Shown here piece after piece: positions 4,229 through 35,588 of a DNA stretch of 42,868 bases. A program made the translations under genes and the position numbers. Positions within the stretch are counted from its first letter, which is position 1. Each line of letters begins with the position of its first letter. The DNA is taken from assembly GCA_016926575.1 (NCBI GenBank), contig JAFGOJ010000454.1:1-42868 (forward strand), written 5' to 3'. The notes beneath the pieces are model-generated. The model saw only the letters and a list, made by a program, of their open reading frames with translations, did no database searches and was not told the DNA's origin. Source of the DNA: Anaerolineae bacterium (GTDB lineage: Bacteria > Chloroflexota > Anaerolineae > B4-G1 > DUEL01).

Positions 4229-4256
4229 TGAGGATGGCTCATTGGGCCTTCCCCGT

Positions 4257-4285
4257 TTGACAGCCTGCCGGAGAGCGCCTATACT
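4257..4285 (+). promoter_or_regulatory. near-consensus sigma70-type promoter for regulator 2 (TTGACA-N17-TATACT)
   Basis: ttgaca at 4257-4262, a 17-nt spacer (gcctgccggagagcgcc), and tatact at 4280-4285. It lies about 75 nt upstream of the ATG at 4362. Confidence 0.55.
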
Positions 4286-4361
4286 CTGTGCGAAGGACGA
4301 GGCACACAGCCTCAAGCGGGCTTTGCCGGAACCTCATTCGGATACAGAGACAGCGTGCTCG

Positions 4362-11363: not shown

Positions 11364-11476
11364 AATGAGAACTCTGGCCTGCCACAACCAGTGGGGAGCG
11401 GAAGAACCCGGTCACCGACCGGCAGTGACGTGCAGCACCGGTATCGGCGAACCCATCACAAGGGGCGGACTAAGGC
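11364..11476 (-). repeat. R1a: 113-nt direct repeat (comM-downstream terminator-like module), left flank of the ATPase cassette
   Basis: Hand alignment with 12821-12933 gives 104/113 identical with no indels. It contains the hairpin CCGGTC-ggt-GACCGG (11408-11422), followed on the minus strand by GTTCTTTCGCTT. Confidence 0.8.
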
Positions 11477-12787: not shown

Positions 12788-12793
12788 AGTGCA

Positions 12794-12822
12794 ATTATAT
12801 ACCACATAGTTTGCATTGTCAA
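12794..12822 (-). promoter_or_regulatory. perfect-consensus sigma70 promoter (TTGACA-N17-TATAAT) giving a leaderless or near-leaderless ATPase mRNA
   Basis: Minus strand reads ttgaca (12822-12817), a 17-nt spacer and tataat (12799-12794), then 6 nt (tgcact) and the ATG at 12787. The predicted TSS therefore falls at or next to the A of the start codon. Confidence 0.65.
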
Positions 12823-12933
12823 TGAAAACTCCGGCCTGCCACAACCAGCGGGAAGCGAAAGAACCCGGTCACCGACCGGCAGTGACGCGCAGCACCCATA
12901 TCGGCGAACCCATCACAAGGGGCGGACTACGGC
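12821..12933 (-). repeat. R1b: 113-nt direct repeat, right flank of the ATPase cassette, directly abutting the comM 3' remnant
   Basis: See R1a. The hairpin CCGGTC-ggt-GACCGG lies at 12865-12879 with a T-rich run downstream on the minus strand. This fits the 3' UTR/terminator of a comM-like gene whose stop codon is at 12934-12936. Confidence 0.8.
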
Positions 12934-13122
12934 CTACCCCGCCCGCCTGGGCCGGTACTGAATGGCCTCGGCCAGGTGCGGGATCTCGATGCGGGCGCTC
13001 CACCCGCACTTGGTCTTCACGCGCAGCACTTCATGGAAGTCAATGTGGTCTGGGAATGGCCTTACTCGAATTGGAGTAAGCAAGACGATCACGGCTTCAG
13101 TCATCCCTCGGAAGCACCCCAT
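12934..13122 (-). pseudogene. Copy B: orphan 3'-terminal fragment of a comM/yifB-like gene
   Basis: 12941-13001 matches 35731-35791 at 58/61. It encodes ...SARIEIPHLAEAIQYRPRRAG*, versus ...SARIEIPHLAEAIQYRPRRAS* for the intact comM. Upstream of 13002 the two sequences diverge, and the 62-aa ORF has no ATPase body. Confidence 0.75.
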
Positions 13123-13145: not shown

Positions 13146-13174
13146 TTGACAAGCCCATGCTTTCGACCTACAAT
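13146..13174 (+). promoter_or_regulatory. near-consensus sigma70-type promoter upstream of the giant gene (TTGACA-N17-TACAAT)
   Basis: ttgaca at 13146-13151, a 17-nt spacer (agcccatgctttcgacc), and tacaat at 13169-13174. It would give a leader of about 360 nt before the ATG at 13542. Confidence 0.5.
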
Positions 13175-13541
13175 AAGACCAGACCACCCGTGACGCCCAG
13201 GCTGTGAATTCGGACGGCCGCCAACCCCTCGCGAGCCTTCCCGACGACTAGGGACATGGTCTCGCGCAGCACTCGTTGCGCCTTCAGATATGTGTGGCAG
13301 GCTATTGGCTTCAAGCGAAATGGGCGAGATGCTTGAAACAGTACCCTGTCCCCTGTTGTCAAGGAACACCGATGTGCCACAAATGCAGCGCTCAATCCGT
13401 TTCTCTCTTGCAGCCCCGCCATATCCTCTGTTCTGACCTCTATCCATTACGGCTTCCCGGTTGTCACAGGTGTGCCGTCTGTGGACGCTGCCTGGGCTCG
13501 CGCAGAGCAGGCAGGCTTGGCCCGATGACAGGAGATGTCGC

Positions 13542-16500
13542 ATGAAACCCTCACTCAAGTACGGTCATTGGATTCTGGCGCTGAGCGTCACACTGCTCCT
13601 GGCTGGGGGCACGCTGGCACCCAGGGCTTTGCAGGCCGATGCTCCCTCGCCGGAGCAGGTAGTACAACGCGCCTGGCGACTGGCTCAGGAGGCCAACACA
13701 TACCGCTTCGCCACCGAGATCGTGCAGACGACGTACCCCGCCCCGACACTGGTCAATGTGGGCCGTTCCACCCGCGAAGCCACGCTCTACATGGAGGGGC
13801 AAGCCGACCTGCCTAACCGCACACTGCTCATGACGTTATGGCAGAACGGCGGCAGCGTACTGAACCCCAGCGATGGTATCCAAGTGCGTATCGAAGGCGA
13901 CCGCGCCTATGGCCGCCAGGCCGGTGGGCCATGGGAGGAGGTTGACGATTTCTCGGGCGCCTTTGCCCCAGCCAACGACCTGATGGCTTACCTGGCCGGC
14001 GCGCACGACATCCGCAAACTCGGCACGGAAACCATCCAGTCCCCGCCAGAAGCACAGACCGGGCAAGACAATGCTTCCTCTCACCTCGTCCCGCTGCCTC
14101 CCTCTCTCTCCTACACCCGCTACGCCTTCGAGGTAGACGGCCCCGCGTTTGCCCATCACCTGCGCGATCAGATGGAGCGCCACTTGCGCGAGAAGGGTGA
14201 ACTCCCGCTGGGCCTGACGCTCGACACCTCCGACGAGATGCGCGCGGTCACCGGCGCGGGCGAACTGTGGTTGGATAGCCGCGGCCTGCCGCTGCGCCTG
14301 ATCGTGCACCTGGTCTACCCCTCACGGGAGAATGGGGAGCGCGTCGAGGCCGACGTCAAGACCGACTTCTCCGGCTTCGTGCCGCTGGTCCAGGCTGCCA
14401 CCCCCGCGGCCCGGCTGGCGAGTGCCATGGGCCTGCCGCGCACGCCGCACGACTGGCTGCAGTTCGGGCAGCAGGGTGCGCTGGCAGTCGGCTCCTTGGG
14501 GTTGTTCATCGCGCTCATCGTCTATTCCCGCTCGAAGAAGGTGTACGTCGCGTTCGTCGTGACGATCATCATCTCGATGGTCATCGGGCCGTTGCTACAG
14601 AGCCAACAGGTAGCAGCTTTCTCCGAGCGTATGGCCGCCCAGCGCGCGGAACAGGAGCAGCGCCAGCAGGAACAAGAAAGCGCCGACCAGGTGCAAGAGG
14701 AGATGACCGCCTCGACCTGGGACCCGCACCGCAACCCATTAGCGAACCAACAAGTCGACGAATCAGCAAGCCAACAATCGGCCGACCCGCTTCCAATTCC
14801 CGATGTCCAACTTCCGACCTCCAACATCCAATCCCTGATCGCCGCTCTTCAACTGCAGGCGACGACGACCATCACCAACCCCACCGCCGACAATGATGGC
14901 GACACGCTGACCAACATTCAGGAACTGCGCCTGGGCACAACGCTGGGCGATACCGACTCCGACGGCGACGGGATCACCGATGGCGCCGAAGTGCGCGGCT
15001 TCCAGGGCACATTGGGCGACATGTGGTACCTCGATCCGCTCAACCCCGACAGCAACAACGATGGCCTGCCGGACACGCTAGAGTGCCCGCAGTTGCTACG
15101 CCCCTCGTTGAGCGCGCTCTCTCCATCCGGCGCCTGCCAGGACAAGGACCAGGATGGTGTCCCCGACGTCTTTGACATAGACAACGACGACGACGGCGTT
15201 CCCGACCAAGTGGACCTTTCGCCGTTCAGTGTGATGGGCAGCGCGAGCGCGCCATTCAACTACGATAACCCCTTCAGATTCGGCGCCAGTTACCTGCAGG
15301 CAAACAAGCCGGTGCTGGTTGACGTGCAGTTGCGCCCCCAGAACCCCGACCACCTGTCGTACGCGCTCAACGTGATGGATTGGCCGGCCGGGGACACGCA
15401 AGGCCAGGTGCAGCGCGTTCTCCATTCGACCTATGCCAGTCACATGACAGGCGAACAACTGGAATACGAGCCATCGGCCGCCAACGGCGATATGCGCCTG
15501 ATCCCCATGCTGGAGATCGAAATGACCGGCGCTACCATACCCCTGCCGCTGACCACCACGCTGGCGACCACCATCCAGTGGAGGAGCGACATCAGCGGCA
15601 CGGTCAAAGCACGCCAGTCGGGGCAGAACATATTCCTTGATTTCAGCAGTTGGCCGGGCCGTTCGGTGCGCTATTATTTCATCATCTACAACGGCCCCTG
15701 CGGCGCGCTGGGCAGCGAATGGTTCGGGCCGTTCTCCGTCGCCGCGGGCGATACGTCCTACACAATAGCCAACAGGGACCTGCTGGACGTCGCGGACGGC
15801 CAGCACGCCATCACGGTCTATGACAACGTGGCGGGGGAGAATCCTGTCTGTACGACGATCGATAACATCGTCAACGGTCCCTATACCGACAGGATGGTGG
15901 ACGCGGCGCCGCTGGAGGTCTATGGCGTCAGCGTGCGGGAGAAGGATGAGAACGGCACGCTGCTGGCCTACGTCCCGCTGAACATGGTCAATGACGATAC
16001 CGGCGGCGCACGGGCAGCCTTTGCAGGCCGCATGTTCTATCAACCCGGCAGCGGCGGCTGGGGCAACACCCAGAAGATGCGCCTGGTGTGGCTGGTGCAG
16101 ATGCTCACCGACTGGTGCGACACGGAAGGATTCACGCCGTCCAGCGACGAGAACGCCGACGAGGAGCTCACGGCGTGGTGTAGCGAGTCCACCCACCGCG
16201 TGGAGCGGACGCAAGTGGTGCACACCTACTACGAAGACTGGCGGCTGGCGGGCCTGGCCGTGCGCGAAGACCACGGCGCAGCGGTGGCCATCGCCCACGA
16301 GGACCCGACGACGGACCAGCATCCTGATAACGACGACTATCTGTGGATGCTGGCCAAGGGGCTGGAGGCCTCTTTCGTCACCGGGCGCAAGGGCACGGGC
16401 GGGCAGCGCGACATCACGCCGAGCGTGATCCGGCAACGTTTCGACCGTGTTGCTGGCTCCGGCACGGACGAGCAGCGCTGGGGTATTCCGCAGGACGCGC

Positions 16501-19500
16501 TGCGGGTAACCTATTACGGCACCAACTATTTCCCGCACCAGGGTTATCTTGCCAACATCGCCGCGCAGTACAGCAAGGACGCCCTGGCCCGCTTCCTGGT
16601 CGGCGGCCAACCGACGACGGATGCACCCACCCTGCTGTTCGCGCGCGAGGAGTATTTCCGCAGCGCCAATCTGGACGCCGTGCCGCACACGAATGGGGCT
16701 GCCCAGGCGACAGTTGAACTGAAGCCGGAGGAGTACGCGGTGGAGACGGTGGCGACCGTCCAATGGGCGCCCTACCGCTATCGGAATGGCCAGTGGCAGG
16801 CCTACCCCATCGCCGAGTACATGGACGTGCTCGACCTGCGCATCGGCGATCTGTTCAAGGGCGTTCCCGATTTCTACGATCCGAACGACCTTGAGAACAG
16901 CGAGCTGGCGCTGGACGGCGCGGTCATGGCCGCACAGTCCAGTTACCTCGCCTTCTACAACGGCGTCTCCAACATCGTCCAGCGCGGCGCGATCGCCTAT
17001 GCGCAGGCGGACTTTGTGTGGACCGACCGGCAACTCCTCGACTGGACGTACCTCACGGCGCGCAAGGGCCTGATCATCGGCACCAACGCCGTCACAGTGG
17101 GCGTCGTCGAGACGCTCATCAACAAGATCGTGGACAAACTTGCGGCGAAGGCCATCGAACAGAACGTCCTGGCACTGTTCCAACAGGCGTTCCCAACGTT
17201 GGACTTTGCACAGAAAGCCGCCGAGATCGGGAAATGGGCTCAGTTCAAGGAGTTTGTCGGCGGTTTGTCGTGGGCGGGCTTCAAGAGCAGCGTCAGCGGC
17301 TTTGTATCGGACAAATGGGGCATGGTGACGGCGAAGCTGAAGGATCTGTTCGCGTGGGCCAGGGGCAGCCCGGGATGGGCATTGGCGGGTGCGGTCCTGG
17401 CGCTCACGACGATCGTCGCGGTTGCCGCTCTGGCCGGCGCTGGAAAATGGGACGTCGCGATCTCGGTGGGAGTCCTGGGGCTGAGCATGTTCTCACTGGG
17501 CAAGGCCATCTACAACCTGGTGACGTATGGCGCCTCCGAAGGGATCCAGGTCGTGACGCAAACCGTCAAGATCTTTGGCACAGTCACGAGCACGGCCAAC
17601 GTTGCCGGCGTCATCGGCCTGATCATCGCGGCAGTGGCGGCGATCGGGTTCTTCGTCTACGCCTGGGCCTCCAGCGGTGTGGGTATCTTTAGCCTGGCCT
17701 TCAACGCCATGCTGGCCCAGACGATTGCCCAGATCGTCGTGGCGGTCATCATGTTCGCCATCGCCGCGATTCCCGTCGTCGGACAATTGATCGTGGCGAT
17801 CATCGCCGTGATTGATTCCCTGATTGCCCTGATCTGCACCGCCATCGGAGAAGAGGCGCGCACCAACGTCGCCGGGCAGTGGCTCTGCCGCGGACTTACC
17901 GGCGTGGCGACGGAACTCATCCGCAACGTCATCTACGACGCGCACGACCTGGTGGACCTGCGCAACCCCGACCGGCTGCAATTCTTCAACTTCGATCAGC
18001 AAGTCTCCGAATCCCAGGGCGTATCCGAAGGCAGCACCGTCCGCTACAGCACCTCCGTCACCACCACCATCCAACTGGCGCACGTGTTCCCCGACTGGGA
18101 AGAGATGCTCGAGGGCTGGAGGAGCGGCACGCGCCTGATCCCCATCGATTGGAAATCCCTGTCCTACGCCTACCAGTTCAACAACGATGACCTGCGGACA
18201 GCCCACTACACCTACAACCTCCAAACCGTGCAGGCGAACACCCACGAAACCCTGTCCCGCTACAGCGAAGACGAGGGGGCCCTGGTATGGCAACAGACGC
18301 AGAGCGATTTCGGCTACATGGAAATCGTGCCCTTCCTTGCCGTCAACTCCACCAGTACCTACGACACGCTCGACGAAACCGGCATCAACCGCCCTGTATC
18401 GCTCTACCTGGCGGAAGGATACAACGTGCCCCTCCAGGAGTGCTTCGTAGTACCTGATCCGCCCGGCTGCATCATTGCCCCGTACGTTCCCTTCCTCTGC
18501 TTGGTCCCGGTTTGCCACATCCGGGACAATGCCGCCACCAGCCACATAGACCTGGGCCAAAGAATGTACCTCGACGTCTTCCCGGAGAACCTGAGCCAGT
18601 TCTACGACCTGGCCCCCAAAGATGGGGGCTATGCGCTGGCCTGGGGTCAGACCGGCGATGTGACCTTCCCGCGGCAGCGGGACGCCGACGGCGACGGGCT
18701 GCTCACCGTGGCACTGGGCGGCTCCGACCCCGACGACAGCAAGTGGGACTCGGACGGCGATGGCCTGGGCGACTATTTCGAGTACACCGTCGGCAGCGAC
18801 CCCACCCAGCCCGACGGCGACGGCGACGGACTGACCGACCAGGTCGAGTTCCGCCTGAGCACCGACCCCTACCGCGCCGACAGCGACGGTGACGGACTGA
18901 CGGACGCCGAGGAAGCGCGCGGCTGGGAGTTCGTGTACGACCTCACCACCGGCGGCCAGCTGCGCACCCGCGTCACCTCCGACCCCTTGACCCCAGACGC
19001 CGACGGCGACGGACTGACCGACTTTCAGGAAAAGACCTATGGATTCAACCCCCGCGTCCCGGAAAGCGACACCGTGCTGACGCTGGATTCGCGGGTGTAC
19101 GAAACGAGTGCCCCCCACCTGCTGCTGCGCTTCGAGGAGGATGCCGGGGCCGCTGCCTTTGGCGATTCGTCCGGCTACGGAAACGTCGCCGCCTGCGACG
19201 GGGACGGCTGTCCCACCGTCGTGGAAGGCAGATATGGCAACGCCCTCCAGTTCGACGGCGCCGACGATTGGGTGGAAGGGCCGGAGATGGACATCCCCGA
19301 CGACTTTACCCTTGCCCTGTGGGTCAACCCCGACCGGACGAGTGACGGCCAGACTTTCATCGGCAAGCACACGGCGGGAGGTGCCAATCTCATCGTGTTC
19401 GGCTTCTCGACCGGCGGCTATTCCTTCAACATCAGGGGCGCCTCCTACGCCGCGGGAACCAAGACGACCGGCTGGCAGCACCTGGCCGTCGTCGGGCACA

Positions 19501-22500
19501 GGACCGGCGCCTCAACGACTGAGGTGACAGTGTATAGGAACGGCGACCTGCTGTGGCAGCACACGCTCAGCTCCGTGGCGGGCGACGTCTCCGGCAAGCC
19601 CTGGGCGATCGGCCAGGAGTGGGATCCCGGCGGCCCAAGCGATTTCTTCGACGGCGCGATTGACGAGGTTGCCGTCTTTGACCGCGCCCTCTCGGAGACC
19701 GAGATCGAGGCCCTGATGAGGGCGCAGTACAACCCCAGCGACCTGTTCGTCCGGCCCGACGATCTCTTGCGCTACGAGGCGGCGATCAAGAACGAGCTGC
19801 TCGGCCGCCAGGCCCAGGGGCTGCTGACCACCGACTTTCCACCCACGACGCTCACCGGCAGCACTGTCAACCCGGTGTCGTTCATGTTGCAGCCACAGGA
19901 GACCGCCGTGATGTCCGGCAGCGTGCAGGTGAACTCTGCCGTGGCCTCTGGCACCGCCATCAGCCTGACCCAGGTGGCCGGGGCCGTCATCCTGGACTGG
20001 CGCGAGCAGTCGGGCTTTGCCGAGATGTGGCTGCCGCTGAACGAGATCAGCACGACGACCACGTTCCAGGACTATTCCGGGAACGTGCCTCAGCGCAACG
20101 GCAGATGCTCCGGCGCCCACTGTCCGGCGCGCGAGCAGCCTGGCTACTTTGACTACGGCCTGCGCCTCGACGGAATCAATGACTATGTGGTCTTGAGCGA
20201 CACCATGACGCTGGGCCTCAAGGACAGCAGTTTCACCGTCTCCGCCTGGGTTAACGGCGCCGCGTTCTCCAGCAACGATCAGGCCATCATGGGCACGGAT
20301 ACGCAGAGCACCAACCAGGGGCTGCACCTGGTCGTCCGCAACGGCAAGCCGTACATGGGCTTTTACGGGAACGACCTCGACAGCGGCTTTACGCTCTCGG
20401 ACGGCCGCTGGTACCACGTCGTCTTCCGCTACACCCAGAGCACCGGCGAGCAGGCCATCTTTGTCAACGGCGAGCCCAGGAACTGGCGCACCGGCGCGGC
20501 TGCGTTCCAGGGCAGCGGTACAGTCTACCTGGGCCGTGCGCTGGGCGGCAACTATTTCAATGGCTGGATGGACGACGTGCGTGTCTTCCAGCGCGCGCTC
20601 ACACGGGACGAGATCCGCGCCCTCTACGGCCAGCCCGTCCTGAGATTTGGCTTCGAGCCAAGCGTATACAATGTATACCTCGACGAGTCCGGCTTCGGCA
20701 ACTTTGCCGCCGGCGCCACCTGCCCGTCCTCCCAGCAGAACGGGATCAGCGGTGGGGCGCTAGAGTTCAGCGGGATGCAGCAGTGCTCCATGTTCATGAG
20801 CGAAAGCCTGAACCTGTGGGACAGCGCGTTCACGCTTTCGATCTGGCTTTACCCTAGGACCACCGGTTCCAGCACGTACGACGACTATACCCAGGGCATC
20901 TTTGGCAACTACTGGAGCTACCGCGACACTGCCGCCAACAACACCGACGCGGCCGCGCAGAGTTATCCCACCCTGTTCCGGGTGGGGCGCCGCTTGCGCT
21001 TCGGCTTTGGCGACGGCACGACCTGGCGGCACTGGGATACCGGCGATGTCCTCACCCTCAACAAGTGGAACCACGTAGTCGTGGCCTTTGGCCCCATTTA
21101 CGACCAGGACGGCAACTTCCTGGAGAACCGTATTACCTTCTACGTTGACGGCACGCCTGTGAAGAGCGAGGGGGTGGGAAGCGCCGCCCCACGCTACTCC
21201 TGGCTCTACAACTTTCTCATCTCCATCGGCCAGGTCAGCAGTATGGCCAGGCTCTACGTAGACAACATCTGGGTGGACGACGAGAAAGACGGCAGCGGGT
21301 CAGCAGAGCTGTGTCTGGCCTGGGACGAGCAGGAGATATACAACCAGGGAGACATAGGCGACGACAATGGCGATGGCAAGTCGTATTCCGTGAGCCACGA
21401 AGAGGTGTTCATCAACAGCGGCACACTCAGGATGTGGGAGGACGATCGCGACCACTCCAGCCGCGGCACCCGCTGCGGTGCCAGGCCTGACGACGACGAC
21501 GACCCGCTCGACGGCGGCACGCGCGATAGCGGCGGTTGGTCCTTCGACATCTACTACCCTGGCTTGGGACGGAGTGGCTACTCCTTCTCTGGCGACACCG
21601 AAGGCACGCTGTACCTGAGCAAGGACAACCCCTCCATCCCCTTCCATGGCCGCATAGACGAACTGACCCTGTACAAGCGCGCGCTTTCGGCCGAGGAGGT
21701 GCAGGAACTGTACCTCTCCGTTTCCGCTGCCCTGCGCCTGCGCCTGGACGATCCGCCCGGCAGCGACACTTTCGAGAACTCGCTGGATCTGAGCCGGCAG
21801 AGCGACGCCTACTGCTCGGGCAGCAGATGCCCCACCGCCGGCGTCAACGGGCGCGACCTCCAGGCCACCTTGTTCGACGGGAACGATGTGCTCAACACCA
21901 ACCTGACCGTAGACCAGTCCAGCAGTTCTGCCGGCGTGACCATGATGGCCTGGGTCTACCCCACGAGCACCAGCAGCGGGGTGCACCACGTGATCAGCAC
22001 CTACGCGGGAGGCGACTATCTGTGGTCCCTGCTGAGGAATGGCGACAAGTGGGCCTTCAACACCGGCATCGGCGTTCAGACGACCCTCGCTTCCGTCGAC
22101 GTGGGCCGCTGGCAACACATCGCTGTCGTCTACGACCCTGCCCACGGAACGACCAGCTTCTACAAGGACGGCGTACGCGAGTTCCAGAGTGTATATGGCA
22201 TGGCCTACCACAGCACCAGCAACACCGTCGCCATCGGCGGCAGGTCCGGCGGTGGCCTGTACTTTGATGGCCGCATAGACGACGTGCGCATCTTCAAACT
22301 GCCGCTCTCCGCCGCAGACGTCGCCAGCATCTACCGGGCTGCGCCCATCCTCCAAATGCACTTTGACGACGACCCGGCAAACACGACGCAGTTCAGAGAC
22401 AGTTCCGGCAACGGCCTCAACGGCACCTGTTCCCGGCTCCCCGGCTATTATGACCGCTGCCCCAAGGTTGGGGAGGGCATTCAGGGACAGGTTGGCCTGG

Positions 22501-25500
22501 CGGCCGACTTTGACGGCGTGGACGACTATTTCACCGTTCCTGACGACGATCGGTTGGACCTGGATGCCTTCAGTGTTGGCCTGTGGATCATGCCCACGGC
22601 GAACTTGACGCGCACGCAGATTCTGCTCAGGAAGGGTGAATATGACGACATCAACTTTGAGCTGCACGTCGAAGGGGGTACCCTGAAACCGATCGTGAGT
22701 TTTCACGACTGCGCGGGTTGGGGTGCTTACAGAGAGCTCGCGAGCAGCACGCCCTTGATAGTGGGCCAGTGGAATCATGTGCTGGGCACGTACGACGGGC
22801 AGGAACTCGTGATCTATGTCAACGGCTACGAACAGGGCCGAACGCGCCTGGCCGCGACGCCGTGCCACAATGACGCCACGTTGTTCGTCGGGATGGGCGC
22901 CTTACCGCCTGCTGCTCGCATAGACGAACTGACCATCTACGATCACGCACTGGGACCCTACGAAGTGCGCGATATCTTCCTGTACCAGGGTCGCTGGGTG
23001 GAGGATCGCCAGAGCCACACCATCGTCGTGGACGACGAATACCCCGTCTCCGCGCTGCTCTCATACGCCCCCACGCAGCCCTACCGGGCCAATCAGTACG
23101 TGGGGATGCACGTCGAGGCGCACGATGCCACCTCCGGCGTCAGTCTGGTCGAACTGGGCGTAAAACCCAGTGGCCAGGCCGCCTACACCTGGACTGCAGC
23201 GCCGCCCTGCCAGCAAACTGCCAATGGCATCGCCTGGTGCCCTGCCTTCGATCCCACGCAATTGGGCGGCGAGGGTGTCTACACGCTACAGACCCGCGCC
23301 ATCGACCGGGTCGGCCACCGCGAAACGCCCGCCCAGGAGTATGTCGTCTACGTGGACGGCACGCCGCCGACGATCGCTTCTGCGCTGGCGAGCGGCACGG
23401 TGGTCGGCGCCTCGCCGCACCCCAGCCGGCCCGGCGCCTGGCGTGTACCTCTGCGCGGCACGGTCAGCGATCCAATCATTGCAACGGGCGTGCCGGGCAG
23501 CGGCGTGCGGCCCGATAGCGTCTGGGTGACACTGCTCACGCCTGCCGGCGCGCCCGCCGGAGAGGGGCCGCAGCTGGCCGCGCTCAACGGCGTGACGTGG
23601 ACAGTGGCCTACGACTTTGGAACCAGAGAGCCTACCGGCGTCTACACGCTCCATGTCGAGGCCGCCGACCGCGCGCCGACCGCCGATACGTTGGGTAACC
23701 GGCGGGCCGTGGACCTGGGCACCATCGTCGTGGACGCCGTTGCCCCCAGCGCCGGGTTGAGTGTGCAGGACGTGCCCACCACGGCGGTCACGTCCATGCT
23801 GCCGTTCAGCGGCACCGTCGTAGAACTGCCCGCCCTCGATCACACCGTCCTGCGCCTGCACCTGGACGAGGTGTCCGGCGCCAGCACCTTCTACGATGCC
23901 TCCGGTTATGGGCACAACGCGACCTGCGAGGCCTCCTGGAGTGTCTGCCCTGCCATGACGGATGGCGTGTATGGCCACGCTCTCCAATTCGACGGGCAGG
24001 ACGATTGGATCGAGACTCGCCAGAGCCCCTTCCTCGATCTCAGCGGCGGCAGTTTCAGCGAGGCCTTCTGGGTCTACCCCACGCTCCAGGACGATTATGA
24101 GCACGGTGTCCTGGGCTGGGAGAGCATCGTGGCGGACCGGTATAACTACCCCAGCGTGTGGGTGGTCCAGCGTACCAAGATCCATGCTGGCTTTGGCGAT
24201 GGCGTGAACTGGAACACCATCACCACGGACGACATCCTGACCCCCAATGCCTGGAACCACGTCGCCGTCACCTTTGACGGCAAGAGTTACAAGGTGTACG
24301 TCAACGGCGCAGAGCGCTTCTCGACTGATGATTACGCCGGGAGGAAACCGTACGCGGAAACGCGGGTTATGATCGGCAGCGCAGGCGCCAGCCGGTACTT
24401 GAGGGGTACGCTCGACGAGGTGATCATCCTCAGCCGTGCGCTCCTGCCGGGCGAAGTGCGCACGCTGGCCCAGTCCCAGGTGGTCGGCGTGAGCGCGGTG
24501 CAGGTTGCCTTCACGCCGAACCTGTACGCCTGGCCCTTCTACAACGAGCAGACCCCCGCAGGTCAGGCGCTCCACCTGCCCTTCGAGGACGCGCCAGACG
24601 AGAACGGCTCCCTCACCTTCTATGACATCTCAGGGAACGGACATCACGGCCAGTGCGGCGCCAGGTGCCCTGCCACCGGTCAGAGCGGCCACGACGGAAA
24701 CGCCGCCGGTTTCGACGGCAGCGACGATTTCGTCGGCATCTCTGGATTCGGCAGTTTCACCACCACCACTGTCTCGGCATGGGTCTATCGCACTGGGGAG
24801 AACTCGACGCGCGAGACCATCGTGTCGTACAAGACGCACGGTGGCTGCGGCTTTACGCTTGCCCTGAACGAGACCAATCTCTCTTTGCCCAAGTCGAATC
24901 CCCTGCGGTTCAATAACCAGTACCCACGCTTATACGTCAACGTCGGCGGCACCTGGGTATCTGCCGAGCAGCAGCTGCCTATTCCGCAGAACCAATGGGT
25001 GCACCTGGCCGGCACCTACGATGGTCAGACCATCCGCCTCTACCGCGACGGCCAGGAGGTTGCCAGTACCCCGGCTCCCGGCGGTATGACACAATGCACA
25101 GCGGACGTCGCCGTAGGCAGCCGCTCTTCACAGGACATGCACTACTTCCCCGGCAGCCTAGACGAGGTGCGCATCTTTGAGCGCGCACTGTCGCCTGCCG
25201 AGATCCGCTCGCTCTACCTGGGCGCGGGGCCAGTGCTGGCACTGCCACTGGACCAGGCGTGGATCACCGATGGCTCCGTTCTCCCCGACATCTCCGGCTG
25301 GCAGCACGACGGCACATTGCACGCCGCCGGCACTTCCAGCAACCTGGCTGTGGCGGGCCAGGTCGGCCCGTATGCCCTGAACCTGGAGGGCGGCAACTAC
25401 TACGTCGCCGTGCCCGATAGTGCCGCATTCGACCTATCCACCTTCAGCGTCGGCGCCTGGGTCATGCCCTACTGGACGAGCTCACAGCCGCAGCCGTTGG

Positions 25501-28500
25501 TGGTCAAGCGCGGCGCGAGCGCCGCGCAGCAGAACTATGGGCTGTACCTGTACTATACGAACCTGTATAATGGAAACTCGGGCCACCTGCGCTTCTCCTT
25601 TGGAGACTGTGCGGCGACCCGCGAATTCAACAGCACCGCCACCCTGAACTGGCGGCAGTGGAACCACGTGATGATGACCTACGACGGCGCTCACTTCAAG
25701 GTGTACATCAACGGCGCCCTGGATCGCAGCGTGGACGTCGCCGCGACGCCGTGCCAGAACGCGGAGCCAGTCAGGATCGGCGGTGGGGTGCCGACAGGCT
25801 CGCTCCTGCCGTTCGCCGGCCGCGTGGACGAAGTGCGCGTCTACCCACGCGCGCTTTCGGCTACCGAGGTCGCGGCGCTCAACGAGAACCGCTGGCGCGC
25901 AGCCAGCCTGAGCGCGTCGGGGGCCGGTGCGGAGCAGGCGACCTGGACCGCCCAGGTGCCCGCCGGGCTGGAGGGCGACTACCGCGTAGACCTGCGCGGC
26001 CAGGACACGGCCAACCACACCGACAACTCCGGCAGCAGCCTGGGCGTGTGGGCGCCCACTGTGGATACGCTGGCCCCGCGCGTGACGCTGACCCGCACGC
26101 TGGTAAGTGGCGCGTACCATTACCGCATGGTGGCCGAGGACTATAACCTGACCGACGAGGGTCTGCACGCTCCCTGCGACGTGGGCGTGATCGTCACCAG
26201 CCAATACTTCCAATCCCCCTGGTACCTGGCGCTCTCCGCGCAGACGCAAGAGCGCAACCAGCGGCTCTACCAGTTGGCTGCCGAGTGCGAGGTGCCTGCC
26301 TGGATGATGCCTGGCCTGGTGGGCAGTTACGATACGCCCGGCCTTGCTTCCGGCATCGCCCTCTCCGGCACCACCGCCTATGTGGCCGACGGCGAGGCTG
26401 GCCTGCAGATCCTGGACATTTCCAACCCGGCGATCCCGCGCCTGGTGGCGACTTTCGACACGCCAGACACCGCCCTCGCCGTGACCCTGCCGCGCGTGGG
26501 ACAGGGTCAGGCTGCTCCCGGCGCCGAGGCCAGCACACCTAGGGGCGCCGCGGATTCCATTCCGCGCTACACAGAGCGCAGCTACCTGGCCCGCGAGCAA
26601 GACACCGGCGTGGATGCTGCCCTGCGCCCGTCTGAGGCGCCCTCACCGTATGAGCCCCGCGAGGCGCCGCTGGCGTCCGATATCGTCCCGATCCACGCGG
26701 CGGCATCTTCTGCGCGGCCCGGCAGCACATCCCCCTCGAAGGTTGACCGCTCCGCCGTCCAGCAGGGCGGCGACCCCGACCTGATGGTCGAGAGCATCGT
26801 CGCAGAGCCGGCTGCGGTTGGCCTCAATGAGCCGTTCACCGTCACCGTGGTGGTCAAGAACCAGGGCCCAGACGACGCGGGCGGCAACTTTCACACCGGC
26901 ATCTACGCTGACTTTGACCCGGCAGGACAATGCGACTGCTGCATCCACAGCTGGGCCTGCACCAGCGTCGTCTCCCTGACCGCCGGCCTCACCGCCACCC
27001 TGACATTCACCCACACCGGCTTCTCCCGCCCGGGGTATCATCGCATCTACGCCCAGACCGATTCCTACTGCGCCTACCTGGACAGCAACTGGGACAACAA
27101 CACCTCCGCCCCCATCACCGTCACGGTGCGCTTCTTCACCGTGACCATGACGAGCCCGGCGGGCAATGGCCTGGAAATCGCACGCGACGGCGTCATCTCG
27201 GCCACGTTCAGCCAGGTCGTGAGCGGCACCACCTTCAGCACACGCACCTTCACCGTGCGCGGCAATCAGACGGGCGTGTACACCGGCGTGGGACAGGCTG
27301 TCAGTTGGTCCTACATCTTCGATGCGGCGCGCGACTTTATGCCGGGCGAGACGCTGGTCGTCAACCTGAGCGACGGCATCCTGGCGGACGACGCTACCCC
27401 GCTCCTGCCCTACGCCTGGCAGTTCCGCAGCGCCGTAGACGGCGGCACAGGCGCCTTCCAGGACAGCGGCCAGAGCCTGGGCAGCGCCGGCTCCTACGGC
27501 ATCGTGCTGGGCGACGTGGACGGCGACGGCGACCTCGACGCGCTCACCCGATACGCCGCCGACCCGGTCAGGGTCTGGCAGAACGACGGCAGCGGTGTCT
27601 TTACCGACACCGGCCAGAGCGTCGCCAGTTCCAACGTCGCCGACTTCGCCCTGGGCGACCTCGACGGCGACGGCGACCTGGACATCTTTATCGGCGAAGG
27701 CTATGCCCAACCCAAGCGCGTCTGGCTGAACGATGGGACAGGCGTCTTTACCGACAGCCTCCAGTACCTGAGCGGCGTCGAGGAGACGCTGGCCGTGGCG
27801 CTGGGCGATCTCGACGGCGATGGCGACCTGGACGCCTTTGCCGGAAATCGCGGGCTTGGGCCCTATGACGCCAACCAGGTCTGGCTGAACGACGGCGCGG
27901 GCGTCTTTAGCCTCGGCCAGAACGTGGGCGCGGAACCCACCCTCGACGTGGCGTTGGGGGACGTGGACGGCGACGGCGACCTGGACGCTCTTGTGGGCAA
28001 CGAAAGCCTGTCCAACACCGTCTGGCTGAACGACGGGCTGGGGAATTTCAGCGACAGCGGCCAGGCCCTGGGCAGCGGCGACGTCGCCGTCTACGTGGCG
28101 CTGGACGACCTCGACGGCGACGGCGATCTGGATGCCTTCACCGCCGGCTACATGCTGCAATCCGGCCGTGTCTGGCTGAACGATGGTTCCGGCGTCTTTG
28201 CCGACAGCCTGCAAAGCCTGCCCAGCCCAGGTTCTCTGCCCGTGGAATTGGGTGACCTGGATGGCGACCACGATCTGGACGTAACCCTCGACGGCGGCGA
28301 CATCTGGTTGAACGATAGCACGGGCATCTTTACCGATAGCCTCCAGTCCATCGGCCTTGGCTGGCCAGACGGCGCCCTGGCGTTGGGGGACGTGGATGGC
28401 GACGGCGACCTGGATGTCCTGCTTGGGCAGGACTCGCCGGATGGCGAGATGTTCGTGGATGCCGTCACGCTCTGGCTCAACACCCGCCTGGCCCACGACG

Positions 28501-31500
28501 ACACCTTCGCGGTAGCGGAGGACTCGGTCGGAAACACGTTGAACGTGCTGGCCAACGACGGGTTCACCGGTGGGCCATCGCTCACGATCAGCAGCGTGGG
28601 CGCGCCGATCAGCGGCACCGTCACGATCGCCGGCAGCACCGTGGTCTACACGCCCACGCTTGACTTCACCGGGGATGACGTATTCACCTACAGCGTTGCC
28701 ACTGCCGGCGGCCTCCTCGGCGACACGGCGACTATCACCGTCACGGTGGGCGGCACCAACGATCCGCCCGCGGCGCAGGACGACACCGCCACGACGAACG
28801 AGGACACCGCGGCAGCCATCAGCGTGCTGGCCAACGACTCCGATCCCGACGGCCAGACGCCGTTCTTGCTGGCGGTGGAGAACCCCACCTCGCACGGCGC
28901 TGCCGCCATCGCCGGGAACACGGTGATCTATACCCCGTCACAGGATTTCAACGGCGCGGATACCTTCGCCTACACCATCAGCGACGGCATCCTGACCGAC
29001 ACCGCCCGCATCACCGTCACCATCCAGCCGATCAACGACGCACCGCCCTTCACCACCGGCCCCGACTGGGTGGTGGCCGAAGACTGCGGCACGCAGGTCG
29101 TTCCGGCCTGGGCGACGGACATCGCGCCCGCCCCGGCGACCGCGACGGACGAAGCCGGGCAGGTGCTCACCTTCACGCTGACGAACGACAACAACGGCCT
29201 CTTCTCCGCGCAGCCCGGGTTGAGCGTCGCAGGCGTGCTCACCTTCACACCGGCCGCGAACGCCAACGGCGTCGCCAGGGTGTCGGCGACGCTCCAGGAC
29301 AGCGGCGGCACGGCCAACGGCGGGATGGATACGACGATGCAATCCTTCGTCATCACTGTCACCGCCGTCAACGATGCGCCGCAGGCCAACGACGTCACGC
29401 GGGCGACGCCGGAGGACGTACCGCTCAACATCGCCATCGTTCCCAGCCAGGTCAGCGACGTGGACGGCGACCCGCTCACGGTGAGCAGCGTCGGCGCGCC
29501 GGCCAATGGCACAGCCACGACCGACGGCAGCAACGTGGTCTATACCCCGACGCTGGACTTGAACGGCGTAGACGTGTTCACCTACACCGTGCGCGACCCC
29601 GGTGGGCTGACCGACACGGCGACCATCACCGTCACCGTCACGGAGATGAACGACCTGCCGACGCTGGACCCGCTCTCCAAGCTGACGATAGACGAGGACG
29701 CCGCGATGCAGACAGTGGGCCTGAGCGGCATCAGCAGCGGCGCGCCAGACGAGACCCAGACTTTGACTGTCACGGCTACGTCAGACGACACGGGCTTGAT
29801 CCCGCATCCCACCGTCGCCTACACGAGTCCCAACACTACTGGCGCACTCTACTTCCAGCCGGTCGCCAATGCGTTCGGCGTGGTCACGCTGGCCGTGACC
29901 GTCACCGACGGCCTCTCGCAGACCGCGTGTACGTTCCAGGTGACGGTCACGCCGGTCAACGATCCGCCGACGCTGGACGCGATCCCCGACGTAGAGGTCT
30001 ACGCCGACGCCGGCCCGCAGACGGTCAGCTTGAGCGGCATTGGCGCCGGCCCTAACGAGAGCCAAGCGTTGACCGTGACCGCTTCTTCGGGCAACGTGGG
30101 CCTGCTGCCGCACCCCACCGTCGTCTACACCAGCCCCAACCCGACCGGCAGCCTGTGGCTGTCACCGCAGTCCGGCCACGCGGGTGCGGCCACGGTGGTA
30201 GTGACTGTCACCGACGGCCTCTCGCAGACCGTGCGCTCCTTCCAGGTCACCGTCAGCCCGTTCCCGCCCCGCCCCTACGCCTACGTCGCCGACTGGACAG
30301 GCGGCCTGCGGCTGGTGGACGTTTCCACGCCCGCCAACCCGCACGCCAGCGGCGTCTACACCACGTACTCTGCCTACGACGTCGCCCTCTCCGGGCCTTA
30401 CGCTTACGTCGCCTCCGGCTACGCCGGGTTGCAGATCATAGACGTCTCCGACCCGGCCGATCCGCACAAGGTGGGCGAAGCCGGCTTCGCCGGCAATGCC
30501 CAGGGCGTGGCCGTCTCCGGCGGCACCGCCTACGTGGCAGATGGCGACCGCAACCAGTTGCGGATCGTGGACGTCTCCGATCCTACTGATCCGCACCAGA
30601 TTACCACCTACGGTACGCCGGGATACGCTTACGATGTGGCGGTCTTGGGAGGTTATGCTTACGTGGCGTGCGGCTTCCGCGGCCTTCAGGTGGTGGACGT
30701 CTCCGACCCCGCCAACCCCCACCTCGCGGGCTCACTGGGCGCATCGTCCGCTCGCGGCGTAGCGGTCTCTGGCAACCGCGTCTACCTGGCCGACGGGATC
30801 GCCGGCCTGCGCGTGGTGGACGTTTCTGTTCCCAGCAGCCCGCAACTCGTGAGCACGTTCGATACGCCAGGGAATGCGTTTGACGTGGCCGTCGCCGGGG
30901 GATTGGTCTACGTCGCCGACTATGACAAGGGCTTGCAGGTGATCAATCCCGATGGAGTCACCCCCAGCGCGACAGCGTGCGATACAGCCGGTCACTGCAC
31001 GACAGTCGCGGCCACTGCGCAGGTGCAGGGCGCCGGCCTTGAGCCACTCGCGGTGAATTTGGGCGCAGGCGCCCTTGGCCCGATGGCGCTCTCTGAATCC
31101 GGGCAGGAATGGCCGAGCGTCTCCATCGCGGGCGTTCCATCGGTGCTCGCCAGCGCCGATCCCATCTCCGTCACCGGCGAGGCCTACGTGACCACCACCT
31201 CTTCCCTGCGCGCCCTGACGGTGACGGTGGACAGTGCCCTCATCTACGTTGAGACCTGGCCCAGCGGCACCGTCACGCAGACCGTCTGGAGCGCCGACTG
31301 GATGCCGGCCGGGGAAGGGACCTATGTGTTGCAGGCGCGAGTCGTGGACGACGACGGCGGCACGGCCAGCGACACGCTCACTGTCACGGTGGATACTCAG
31401 CCTCCCACCGTCGGCATCACGCCGACACTGCTCACCTCCGCGCAGTACCACCCACCGCGCGCCATTGACATCACCGGCGTAGCCACCGACACGGGCGGCG

Positions 31501-34500
31501 TGGCATCCGTCGAGGCCACCGTGGTGCAGGACGGCGTCGCCCGCAGCGCCGTCCTCCTCGGCGGCAGCAGCCCCACCGCGACCGCCTGGGTCGCCACCTG
31601 GTACCTGGGCAGCAACCCTCTGCCCGACGGCGAGGTCTATACCATCACCGCCCGGTCGGTGGACATCGTCGGGCGCAGCACGTGGGTCACCGAACCGGTG
31701 ACGGTGGACGTGACGCCGCCCACGCCGGTCACACTGACACTGTCGGCGGCGGGCGACCGGCTGTCGCCCGGCGAAACTCTGCGCGACACGCCCGCCACGC
31801 TGACGCTGACCTGGACGCAGGCCGGCGACGGCAGCGGCGTGGCCGGCTACCTGGCGGATTGGGCCATCGCCGTGACCAACACCACGCACACCACTTCCAG
31901 CATCCCGGCCCTGGCGACTCGCATCGTCACCACCACCGCCCAGGACGGGCAGAAGGTGACGGCTTGGGTTGTCGGCGAGGACATCTATCAGAACAGGCGC
32001 TGGCAGCGCGCCGGCCCGGTCTACGTGGACGGCCCACGCACGCCCGATTACGCCATCTTGGACGATCCCGACGGCGTGTATCGCGGCTGGATGGAGAGCG
32101 GCTGCAGCCTGCTCGGCGTGGACCGCCGCGCCAGCCGCCAGGCGCAGGGCGCTGAGCAGCGCTTCTATGCCACGTGGAACGCCGAGGGACTGCGGCTGGC
32201 CTGGAACGGCGCCAATTGGGACGATCCTTCGACAGGCTCAGGACAGGCCGGCGGCGACCTGTTCGTCTACCTGGACGTGCAGGCCGGCGGCGCGATCACG
32301 GCCTATAACCCCTACAGCGATACCGCCGGCGCCGTGGTCTACCTGCCCGGCGTCACGCCAGGTTCGTCGGCGGGCGCGATGACCGCCGACTACCTGGTCT
32401 GGGTGCGTGACGCGCGGACGGCGCTGCTGATGCACTGGGACGGCAGCGCGTGGATCTCGGACACTTTGCTCCTCCCCGCGTGGTACCGCTTCGACGCCGC
32501 GCTCAGCAACCCTTCGACAGGCTCAGGGGCAGCCGGCCACACCGACCTGTACCTGCCCTTCGACCTGCTTGGCATCGCCGACCCGGCCTCGACACCGCTC
32601 AACCTGGTCGCCTTCGCCAGCGAAAATGATGCGCTGCGCCTGTGGGCGACAGCCCCCGCAGCTAACCCCGTCAACAGCAGCCGCGTGGTCGAGACGGGTG
32701 TCTTTGCGGGCGAGGAGCAGGAATTCGCCCTCACGCAGCGCTATCACTGGGACGGCCTCGGTGCGGGCGTTTGCCCCAACGGCAGCGAAGGGAGCACGCC
32801 GTTCCAGTATCCCGACACCGATCTACAGGGGCGCATCTCCGCCGATCCGGTTGGCACGGCGTACGCCTTCGTGGACGACAACCTGTTCTGGCTGTGGGAG
32901 TTGCTGCTGGGCAGCCCGCCGGCGGACATCACGTCGCTCCTAGAGCCCTTGATGAGCGCCGACCTCCCCAGGGTGGGCAACGGCCAGTTGATCAGTTACA
33001 CGATCCGCTGCCACAACCAGGGCGCCTACACGGCGACCAACGTCGTCGCGGACGTCCAGGCCTTGTACGCGCTGGCCCTCGTCGGCGGCGACCGCCAGAT
33101 CCCCCTGGGCGACATCGGGCCGGGCGAGGAAGACACGGTCACCTTCTACGGCGTGGTAGACCTGGGCCTCAGCGCGGAACCGTGGGCCGCCGTGGAGGCG
33201 CGGATCTATGACGACGCCCACGACCCGTCCGGCCAGCCGCTGGAGTGGCTGTGGGTGCACCACCCGGTGGATCGCGACGCGCCCGAGTTCTTTGGCATCC
33301 AGCAACCGCGCTATCTGATCGGGACGGGCACGACCGACCTGCGCGGCTACGCCTACGACGATTCCGGCGTGCCCACGATGACGCTCACCATCCAGTCCCC
33401 ATCCAGCCTCACTCAGACGCTCATCTGCCCAGACGCGACTGCGCAGGACGGCCAGTGGACGTGCGCCTGGGACGTGACGGCCAGCAATGGCGGCGCAGCC
33501 CCCGCTCACGGCGCGCAGTTCGACGTGCAACTCCAGGCCACAGACGGGTTGGGGCAGAGCGGCCTGGGCGACTGGCAGCCCTTCGTCGTAGACGCTATGC
33601 CGCCAGCCGTCACGCTGGACGTGGCGGCGAGTGGCGTGAGCGACGGCAGCGTCGTGCGGGACACCACCTTCACGCTGGTGGGCGACCTGCGCGACGACGG
33701 CGGCGTGCAACAGGTGGACGTGTGCCTGGGTGGCAGTTGCGGGATCGCCAGCCTGACATCGCTCCTGGCATCTGCGCCGGCGAGTTACGAGGACGCGCCA
33801 GGCGCGCCGATCGCCATCACCGGCGGCTGTTTCGAACGCTATTTCGACGTGTCGGAGGATATCGCCATCGGTTGGGCGCGGCTGGGCTTTGTCGCCGCGC
33901 ACACCCACCGCGACGACCTCCAGGTGGAACTGCGCTCGCCGCACGGCACGACTGTGCGCGTGCTTGACGACGACGCCGTCTCCGGCACCCAGCTCCAGAA
34001 CTATGACCTGCTCCTGAGCGACGCCGCGGCGAGCGCGTATGCTGCCGGCGTCGGCGACGATCCCACCTGGCCGTACTACGAGCGTCTGGCGCGGCCTAAC
34101 GCTCCGCTGCACGCCTTCCAGGGAGAGTCCTCCGCCGGGCTCTGGACGTTGCGCATCTGCGATACGGATGGAGCGGCAAACGACGGTGTCTACTACCGCA
34201 GCCTGCTGGAACTCACACCGCGCGATGCCGCGGTGCAGGCGGCGCGCTGGTCATACCGCACGCCCGCCACCGCCGACAGGTTGGATCATATCTCCCGCAC
34301 CATCGTCATCTCCGGCACGGACGCGGTGGGCAACCGCTCCGCCATCAGCCTGATGGTGTGGGTGGACAATGTCGCGCCGGTGATCACTGTAACCCAAGCG
34401 GTAGCGCGTGCTGTCGTGGGCAGCCGCGATGCCCTGATCGGTGGCGTCGCGCACGACGGCGGGCAAGTGATCGCCGTCTCCGTGATCATCGAAACCCCCG

Positions 34501-35588: not shown

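Follow-up and report, generated by a model that had tools for sequence, protein, structure and literature searches.

A 22-kb gene of an Anaerolineae bacterium encodes a member of a large Chloroflexota family of giant, apparently membrane-anchored proteins

Introduction

Among the filament- and floc-forming bacteria of sludge, sediments, and mats, Anaerolineae are some of the most abundant. Giant genes are more prevalent in Anaerolineae genomes (PMC10608941), and the 42,868-nucleotide contig JAFGOJ010000454.1 of an Anaerolineae bacterium (assembly GCA_016926575.1), which we analyzed at full length and refer to as the window, carries one of 22 kb. What kind of protein does this gene encode, how would so long a chain be held at the cell surface, and does it stand alone? 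A sequence-only reading of the window had listed an unusual combination of adhesion, lectin, and propeller modules, lying between two comM repeats and not recognized as a described family, and had proposed a membrane-anchored, calcium-dependent surface fiber that binds carbohydrates or cells. Here, we report that the product is, judged by sequence comparison, a member of a large unnamed Chloroflexota family of giant proteins, and that it probably forms a Sec-inserted, calcium-stiffened, lectin-like surface fiber anchored by six membrane passes.

Results

The giant gene is one uninterrupted coding sequence

The + strand of the window contains a frame that is free of stop codons from 13461 to 35588, i.e., for 7,375 codons. 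Its first ATG, at 13542, stands behind an AGGAG site and yields a gene (13542..35588) of 7,348 codons plus stop. An exact look-up identified the product as NCBI entry MBN1180206.1, annotated with the identical start as a "tandem-95 repeat protein" from an Anaerolineae metagenome-assembled genome (MAG). Given the base composition of the window, a stop codon is expected about every 41 codons, and the probability of 7,375 stop-free codons is about 1e-79. The GC content at codon positions 1, 2, and 3 was 0.64, 0.49, and 0.84, respectively. The closest ortholog, L002 (JAIOAX010000001.1), with 84% DNA identity and 74-76% protein identity over 5,000 amino acids (aa), also has an uninterrupted frame, open for at least 5,029 codons, and the ratio of nonsynonymous to synonymous substitution rates (dN/dS) between the two was 0.32 overall, across about 5,000 aligned codons. 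Frame, codon GC, dN/dS, and database entry all agree with the earlier description of an uninterrupted 22-kb gene for about 7,348 aa: the open reading frame (ORF) is genuine and under selection at the protein level.

That the contig derives from a MAG, and that the locus of one relative is in fragments, would also fit an assembly artifact or a decaying pseudogene, with a giant ORF that is not made as one product. We regard this as extremely improbable, because a frame of this length would hardly arise by chance, GC at third positions is well above that at second positions, and purifying selection extends over thousands of codons shared with an ortholog that is also uninterrupted; moreover, frames of more than 5,000 codons occur in dozens of relatives from independent assemblies. 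A search for DNA repeats in the giant gene found no tandem repeats, and its internal repeats reach at most about 80% identity over at most about 150 nucleotides (nt). This makes repeat collapse during assembly, which the sequence-only reading had named as a way to refute it, unlikely. In the fragmented relative (L001, 10001-25342 of a 507-kb contig, MFD03899 bin), the orthologous gene consists of six consecutive gene calls on the same strand, four of which have LamG or P-domain matches. The split probably stems from frameshift errors in that assembly, and it warns that many of the 1,000-2,000-aa "members" in databases are fragments.

The N-terminal module is probably polytopic and lies outside described families

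The first 1,850 residues form an N-terminal module in which folded domains alternate with membrane segments and calcium-binding repeats (all features of the giant protein are on the + strand). It opens with a Sec-type signal peptide (13542..13637, aa 1-32) that ends in ALQA, with cleavage predicted before the following Asp; the N-termini of homologs are of comparable hydrophobicity. The first ectodomain, E1 (13638..14441, aa 33-300), had been listed as an unknown domain of about 300 aa. It indeed has no Pfam match, but an AlphaFold2 (AF2) model of aa 1-383 (mean confidence, pLDDT, 84) gave Foldseek matches in the Protein Data Bank (PDB) over aa ~35-290 to RseB (E = 5.7e-6) and LprG (E = 1.6e-5, TMt 0.55). 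Further matches were to LolA, EPDR1, and VioE, the whole set ranging from E = 5.7e-6 to 2.2e-4 with a probability of 1.0. The predicted fold of E1 is thus LolA/LprG/RseB-like, a half-barrel with a helical plug. Members of the LolA superfamily such as LprG, RseB, and LolA are lipid- or lipoglycan-binding half-barrels; E1 differs from them in having no sequence-family match and in being one domain within a polytopic protein of 7,348 aa.

A transmembrane (TM) hairpin follows (14472..14597, aa 311-329 and 334-352), recognized by hydropathy and covered in the AF2 model by helices 302-327 and 332-382; it is conserved in the family consensus. Its helices are separated by a basic loop, SRSKK, which has the composition of a typical cytoplasmic turn. 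Beyond the hairpin, a Q/E-rich helix reaches to about aa 430 and leads into the first block of thrombospondin type 3 (TSP3) calcium-binding repeats (14889..15221, aa 450-560). The second block (18642..19091, aa 1701-1850) closes the module. Each contains four DxDxDGxxD motifs (aa 472-555 and 1736-1827), and the Pfam family PF18884 matches the second block at aa 1736-1757; as to the first, homologs carry PF18884. Partial NCBIfam matches to the Myxococcus TSP3-repeat surface proteins CglD and MtsD at aa 1728-1843, in the second block, scored 43.6 and 31.7 bits against cut-offs of 400 and 800, the common part being the calcium-binding repeats only.

Between the two TSP3 blocks lie ectodomain E2 (15222..17378, aa 561-1279), a hydrophobic helix cluster (17379..17849, aa 1280-1436), and ectodomain E3a (17850..18641, aa 1437-1700), which is Cys-rich and beta-rich. 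E2 is likewise beta-rich in its AF2 model, and its motifs GDMRLIPMLE, LDWPxGD, and VREDHG are strongly conserved. The model of aa 560-1700 (pLDDT 71) has a well-folded beta-rich part at 570-1170, then helices, of which five to six long ones lie at 1279-1464, and then a second beta region. A fold search of this model against the PDB and viral structures returned nothing below 1e-3, and only sandwiches of the FN3 type at E ~1e-2. Apart from the TSP3 repeats, Pfam and NCBIfam gave no match to aa 1-1700, even when pieces were scanned singly (Pfam E<=1; the C2 piece also had no Pfam match at E<=1), and no significant PDB match to the N-terminal module was found by sequence or profile search. The description of E2 as an unknown region of about 700 aa therefore stands: Pfam, PDB sequence and profile searches, and fold searches gave no relative beyond these sandwiches.

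The earlier reading had also noted two TM helices and a later hydrophobic cluster, and hydropathy agreed, with two segments at aa 311-352 and five peaks at aa 1280-1436. In family-averaged hydropathy, the peaks of both clusters are conserved. The second is Gly/Ala-rich with very few charges, has a Lys-rich loop behind its first helix, and is 90% identical in aa sequence to L002. In its last helix, Asp1425 (nt 17814-17816) and Cys1432 are invariant in two 10-member alignments of complete relatives, as is a CxGxxG motif directly after that helix; a buried acidic residue at this point suggests more than passive anchoring. Because Cys pairs and TSP3 motifs occur on each side of the cluster, both of its flanks would be extracellular and the number of passes even. 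Four membrane passes, the best fit to the positive-inside rule, are the probable arrangement: helix A (1280-1301), a Lys-bearing cytoplasmic loop that would include the weakly hydrophobic stretch 1305-1320, and helices C, D, and E (~1354-1436).

The rest of the chain is a succession of extracellular modules

The residues beyond the N-terminal module begin with an array of eight Laminin_G_3 domains separated by Ig-like spacers (19254..25871, aa 1905-4110); one of the eight units is interrupted by an insert. After an isolated LVIVD unit (26337..26462, aa 4266-4307) comes a cassette (26775..30266, aa 4412-5575), which we regard as lineage-specific and which is composed of a CARDB domain (aa 4412-4522), a Big_5 or SbsA-type Ig domain (aa 4532-4629), seven FG-GAP_3 stretches that make up a 7-blade propeller (aa ~4650-5050), and five to six Big_9/Cadherin_5/tandem-95 units (aa ~5063-5575). 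The tandem-95 model NF012211, the name of which the database entry bears, scored 207.9 bits over five stretches (cut-off 90), covering about 500 of the 7,348 aa. A second propeller of about six LVIVD repeats (30279..31121, aa ~5580-5860) precedes a conserved C-terminal module (31122..34667, aa 5861-7042) with Ig-like domains, an unassigned region of 330 aa, a weak DUF11 match near aa 6476, and a P_proprotein domain at aa 6786-6879. The chain then contains the string SRVYLPLVS (34668..34694, aa 7043-7051), an internal copy of a putative sorting motif, the YLP-box (NF050076), and ends in an extension with two CARDB-like domains (34695..35585), one of them a Pfam match (aa 7077-7177) and the second seen by eye.

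Nearly every item of the earlier domain list was thus recovered in the order given, including the P-domain, the YLPLV string, and the C-terminal CARDB pair, although DUF11 was weak and the second C-terminal CARDB was not a Pfam match. All recognizable modules are of extracellular, calcium-binding, lectin-like, or adhesion types. Domain scans found no enzyme or toxin domain in the giant protein or in 10 complete relatives, and sequence and profile searches found no significant PDB relative of aa 5850-7348.

Three identities were tried and rejected. An RTX adhesin of the type I secretion system (T1SS) would be expected to carry C-terminal RTX nonapeptide repeats with a T1SS signal and to be encoded beside ABC/MFP genes; the giant protein has no RTX/HemolysinCabind match, and the contig has no such transporter genes. 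LPFAG at aa 4089 is the one string that resembles LPxTG, and the C-terminus lacks a hydrophobic segment, so the protein is not an LPXTG sortase substrate. Nor is it an Rhs or other polymorphic toxin, since it contains no YD/Rhs repeats or toxin; these occur only in the relative P0024, described below.

The giant protein belongs to a large family of Chloroflexota

The family was collected with aa 560-1700 as query. A word-indexed search returned 54 proteins, and all those with a source name came from Chloroflexota MAGs. When one genome per GTDB species was scanned, the segment was encoded at 290 places, nearly all in Anaerolineae, Thermoflexales, Ardenticatenaceae, and related bins, with two to three copies in several genomes. 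A phmmer search of 1.84 billion representatives gave 993 matches at E<=1e-3, at least 559 of them at E<=1e-30, with E values down to 1e-221. In all long matches, the module lies at about residues 550-1700 of its protein. Complete ORFs that hold it have 3,085-5,006 aa, and most of the ORFs exceed 5,000 codons and are still open where the 10-kb flank ends. Relatives carry database labels such as "thrombospondin type 3 repeat-containing protein", "hypothetical protein", or "tandem-95 repeat protein". The oddity that the sequence-only reading had implied was borne out in length, since the giant protein exceeds the longest (6,699 aa) among the 150 best representatives listed, but not in kind, since it shares its N-terminal base with a large family.

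To what extent the rest of the chain is shared was estimated by BLAST of the giant protein against 88 relatives of at least 3,000 aa. Nearly all of them align to the N-terminal module (aa 1-1850), including 68-86 to the signal peptide, LolA-like domain, and TM hairpin (aa 1-600). The LamG array (aa 1850-4250) is matched by 45-86 and the C-terminal module (aa 5850-7050) by 36-51, the LVIVD propeller (aa 5550-5850) by 12-22, the C-terminal extension (aa 7050-7348) by 4-7, and the cassette (aa 4350-5550) by 0-2. Among 10 complete relatives, Laminin_G_3 was present in all 10, and TSP3 and Big_13 in eight each. The core of the family is the N-terminal module, the Laminin_G_3 array, the C-terminal module, and the YLP-box. 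P0055 (6,097 aa), P0090 (6,363 aa), and L002 are examples that share the position of the N-terminal module, a LamG array collinear to about aa 4250, the C-terminal module, and the YLP-box. The giant protein departs from the family in its 1,200-aa cassette, absent from 86-88 of the 88 long relatives, and in the roughly 300 aa past the YLP-box, which it has in common with L043.

Literature searches, which included giant proteins and TSP3 repeats in Chloroflexi, found no published description of the N-terminal module or its family. The earlier remark that the combination was not recognized as a described family held for the N-terminal module, which is missing from Pfam, NCBIfam, and the literature, but not for deposited sequences, among which the Chloroflexota family is large. 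One family locus, L032 (CAZXWB010000032.1), which also has a gene like orf8051 (see below), is in a bin labeled Hyphomonadaceae; it is most likely a mis-binned Chloroflexota contig.

One relative has a different continuation. P0024, from a Chloroflexota MAG (contig of 6,081 nt), follows the N-terminal base as far as the first cluster helix and then changes to Rhs/YD repeats, with a DPxGxF-type core end and a variable, toxin-like tail; this may reflect a polymorphic-toxin variant or a chimera made in assembly. This protein raises the idea that the helix cluster is a membrane-insertion or translocation device and that the family works by the logic of polymorphic toxins, the stalk finding a target cell for contact-dependent delivery. 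The Gly/Ala-rich, charge-poor cluster with its invariant Asp would suit such a device, and the C-terminal parts of the family are polymorphic. Rhs features, however, occur in only one of 187 retrieved relatives, on that 6-kb contig, and no toxin, immunity, or peptidase domain was found in the giant protein or in the 10 complete relatives. The cluster is N-terminal to the stalk and beside the TM hairpin, where one would look for an anchor in the producing cell, and behind the ORF there is no small immunity-like gene, comM being there instead. We consider delivery a very unlikely function.

The distal cassette matches part of a protein encoded beside the family gene elsewhere and evolves fast

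In four loci, the ORF directly upstream of the family gene (L057 273-7151, L058 2496-8267, L063 156-7444, and L067 1306-8253) encodes a separate protein of 1,900-2,300 aa, and with about 1,200 aa of it the cassette at aa ~4400-5575 is collinear at 40-47% identity. The separate protein has a signal peptide of its own and, at the C-terminus, a YLP-box, together with 10 FG-GAP, Big_9/Cadherin_5, and CARDB domains. A shorter upstream ORF in L068 (6-1226) falls in the same cluster. L002 also has the cassette. The modules that had made the combination seem unusual are therefore present, but come mainly from a 1,200-aa cassette that elsewhere is part of a separate neighboring protein. By this comparison, the unusual combination appears to be largely a fusion of modules from two neighboring surface proteins, which suggests that the two proteins act together.

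Selection differs along the chain. Relative to L002, dN/dS was 0.16-0.26 in the N-terminal module (0.19 in E2) and rose through 0.39 and 0.50 to 0.60 in successive distal segments, with values of 0.5-0.6 at aa 4111-5080. Such a rise is what one would expect if the base is conserved and the exposed end evolves fast.

The YLP-box recurs in neighboring secreted proteins

The YLPLV string that the sequence-only reading had picked out is present at aa 7045, but is not new: it is covered by two existing NCBIfam models of the YLP-box putative sorting motif, NF050076 ("sort_motif_YLP") and NF053834 ("ultrashort_CTERM"). Literature searches for YLPLV, FLPLV, or "YLP box" found no paper that describes it. 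Many relatives end in [YF]LP[LI][VI]x[RK] followed by 0-5 residues, and in many the counterpart of aa 7043-7051 is the extreme C-terminus. The motif is enriched at the very C-terminus: among ORFs of at least 150 aa from 81 loci and the window, 10 of 29 matches had it within 12 aa of the stop codon. In the giant protein, as in L043, the box is about 300 aa before the end, with the two CARDB-like domains after it; it scores 14.5 bits with NF050076 (cut-off 15), and NF053834 is not listed for it.

Two neighboring secreted proteins also contain the box. In orf8051-11194 (NF050076 14.5 bits, cut-off 15; NF053834 13.4 bits, cut-off 10), it is at aa 999, 45 aa before the end. In orf6566-7957 (15.2 and 13.6 bits against the same cut-offs), it is at aa 84, behind a signal peptide and a low-complexity linker. 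Its position on the N-terminal side of this protein raises the possibility that the YLP-box marks a processing site, rather than being purely a C-terminal signal.

A promoter-like site precedes the giant gene, and a SARP-type regulator is the commonest neighbor of the family

The near-consensus promoter and the leader of about 360 nt reported earlier were both confirmed in the sequence. A sigma-70-like promoter, TTGACA-17-TACAAT (13146..13174, +), matches 11 of 12 consensus positions and implies a leader from 13181 to 13541. Neither promoter nor leader is conserved in L002. A riboregulatory leader was considered and rejected: it had no Rfam match, and its folding energy equaled that of shuffled sequences (z = -0.06).

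Clustering of flanking ORFs showed that the commonest neighbor of family genes is a SARP/AfsR-like regulator, present in 16 other loci (L010, L012, L037, L040, L043, L073, and L081 among them), usually immediately upstream and divergent. The window encodes one at 768..4097 (+), with Trans_reg_C, BTAD, STAND ATPase, and TPR domains. In 7-8 loci, a HisKA_3 kinase and a LuxR-type response regulator take its place. A dedicated regulator of this kind would make expression of the giant gene probably conditional. Beside the SARP regulator of the window, a second protein (4242-6287) has BTAD and TPR only.

The comM repeats bound the gene, but are not common to the family

On the other side, the giant gene is convergent with an intact comM/yifB (35724..37262, -; TIGR00368, 597 bits, full length). 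The last 24 codons of comM, together with the stop, recur at 12932..13006 (no strand assigned); this copy and 35722-35796 form a direct repeat with an identity of 88% over 75 nt and of 95% over 61 nt. Between the copies there are only the leader and the giant gene, the sole credible gene there. A second direct repeat, of 113 nt (11364-11476 and 12821-12933, 92% identical), surrounds a lone AAA_14/DUF4143 ATPase gene, and its second copy abuts the comM 3'-end copy; it has no Rfam match. The ATPase ORF is listed at 11501-12844 (-), its likely start being the ATG at 12775, with a perfect TTGACA-17-TATAAT at 12822-12794. Together, the two repeat pairs look like the products of two successive insertions with long target duplications.

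Might the 22.7-kb segment 13007-35721 have entered at the comM 3' end, through site-specific recombination or a single, Campbell-type crossover, and the giant gene have been acquired horizontally? The repeat bounds exactly the gene and its leader, comM is still intact, and the neighboring 113-nt repeat makes this seem a spot that collects insertions. DNA homology with L002 starts 11 nt before the ATG (L002 8325, window 13531). All genes upstream of it differ: the L002 flank has UDP-glucose dehydrogenase, PfkB, an M16 peptidase, and fucose isomerase, with neither comM nor SARP, so that the giant gene appears to have changed neighbors recently. Yet the contig contains no integrase, recombinase, or transposase, and no tRNA, and GC content along the window shows no break. 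None of the 80 other family loci has comM near the family gene, a negative answer to the question of the earlier reading whether orthologs also sit at comM. Eighty metagenome comM loci have neither the giant gene nor the 113-nt sequence, although at no more than 85% protein identity they are too distant to serve as an empty-site comparison. An exact 32-nt search in metagenome contigs and an exact look-up of comM in an assembly index gave no match. The SARP regulator, an immediate neighbor elsewhere, is here 9.4 kb upstream and outside the repeats, which fits a local rearrangement better than a one-gene island, and the promoter and leader are not common to L002. Insertion at comM is, in our judgment, a doubtful explanation of how the gene came to be here. 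The description of the giant gene as sole cargo between comM repeats holds insofar as the repeat is real and only this gene is inside; as mobile cargo it lacks an integrase, and its probable regulator is outside.

Beyond comM, at 38323-40542 (-), lies a gene for a 739-aa protein that has many N-terminal hydrophobic segments and matches neither Pfam nor NCBIfam. Three metagenome loci (L086, L152, and L155) also encode the C-terminal 120 aa of this protein near comM.

Discussion

We think it somewhat probable (about 60%) that the giant gene encodes a Sec-inserted, six-pass anchored, calcium-stiffened, lectin-like surface fiber. In this model, the Sec signal peptide would start export, and the TM hairpin at aa 311-352, with the four-pass cluster at aa 1280-1436, would fix the protein in the cytoplasmic membrane. 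Outside the cell and near the membrane, the LolA/LprG-like domain may hold an envelope lipid or glycolipid. Also outside would be the conserved beta-rich domain of 720 aa between the calcium-binding TSP3 blocks, and the remaining ~5,900 aa. The stalk would consist of the eight lectin-like LamG domains with their Ig spacers, the two beta-propellers, the cadherin-like array, and the C-terminal module with the YLP-box. The membrane-proximal base would serve as a conserved platform, and the distal modules as a fast-evolving end that binds glycans, matrix, or other cells. The YLP-box, common to the neighboring secreted proteins, probably marks a processing or attachment step at the distal end, and expression would probably be conditional, under the SARP-type regulator. 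The fiber proposed by the sequence-only reading is to this extent partly supported: the anatomy is as described and the modules are of a fitting type.

Several observations weigh against this model. The LamG domains, the propellers, and E2 do not allow a ligand to be inferred. The five hydrophobic peaks of the cluster may stand for an odd number of passes, in conflict with the topology, and AF2 gave pLDDT <50 at aa ~1175-1352, i.e., for the helical stretch before the cluster and the start of the cluster itself. The YLP-box of the giant protein is internal, has no basic residue after LPLV, and falls 0.5 bit under the NF050076 cut-off. Finally, the Rhs/toxin-like replacement in P0024 may mean that the base serves purposes besides adhesion.

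The same anatomy could belong to a structural tether or scaffold of the envelope, with the N-terminus in the membrane and the YLP-box end on a wall, S-layer, or sheath, joining layers or the cells of a filament. In favor of this, both ends of the giant protein carry a possible anchor, the TM clusters at the N-terminus and, near the C-terminus, the putative sorting motif of the YLP-box. The LolA/LprG-like domain also suggests contact with envelope lipid, and the family is widespread, often in several copies, in Anaerolineae that form filaments. We nevertheless find this reading unlikely, because the distal modules, with dN/dS of 0.5-0.6 and swapped between relatives, are more typical of ligand-binding tips; because a dedicated regulator suggests conditional rather than constitutive expression; and because a chain of some 45 domains would, by estimate rather than computation, far exceed the thickness of the envelope.

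A broader proposal, which we put forward only tentatively and with the odds against it, is that the N-terminal module and the YLP-box form a display system specific to Chloroflexota, in which the polytopic base exports, anchors, and perhaps energizes or gates megadalton fibers and an enzyme recognizes the YLP-box. If so, the fusion with the neighboring FG-GAP/cadherin YLP-box protein would imply that the two are physical partners. Chloroflexota are not known to have an outer membrane.

Returning to the anchored fiber, how does it compare with known giant adhesins? Ebh and Embp of staphylococci are megadalton proteins exported by Sec, held by a TM anchor of their own rather than by sortase, and built of repeated binding modules that function in attachment and envelope integrity. 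From its sequence, the giant protein resembles them in its megadalton scale, Sec-type signal, TM anchoring, and many repeated modules. It differs in having an N-terminal polytopic anchor and LamG, propeller, and cadherin-like modules, where Ebh is anchored by one TM segment at its C-terminus and carries FIVAR/GA repeats, and our searches found no sequence relationship to Ebh or Embp. LapA, SiiE, and MpIBP are calcium-stiffened chains of Ig-like domains with sugar- or cell-binding modules at the far end and a retention part at the N-terminus. Giant RTX/T1SS adhesins of this type belong to diderm bacteria, carry RTX repeats, and are exported C-terminus first by a type I system. The giant protein is likened to them in architecture, but has an N-terminal Sec signal and TM helices, and no RTX match.

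The gene and its relatives were already in public databases under generic automatic names, and giant multi-domain adhesins are a known kind of protein. What is new, as far as Pfam, NCBIfam, the PDB, and the literature were searched, is the polytopic N-terminal module with the family around it, and how these are linked with the YLP-box, with the SARP regulator, and with the fused partner. None of the giant genes of Anaerolineae has been characterized, and this locus supplies an anatomy for a family with hundreds of members. About 1,500 non-repeat residues of its membrane base fall outside every Pfam and NCBIfam family, most of them without a detectable structural relative, and the family is now tied to a curated putative sorting motif, a dedicated SARP-type regulator, and a partner protein revealed by fusion. 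If the base is only an anchor, about a thousand giant proteins now called "hypothetical" still gain a useful annotation. Should it prove to be more than an anchor, it would be a new means by which cells that lack an outer membrane display very large structures on their surface.

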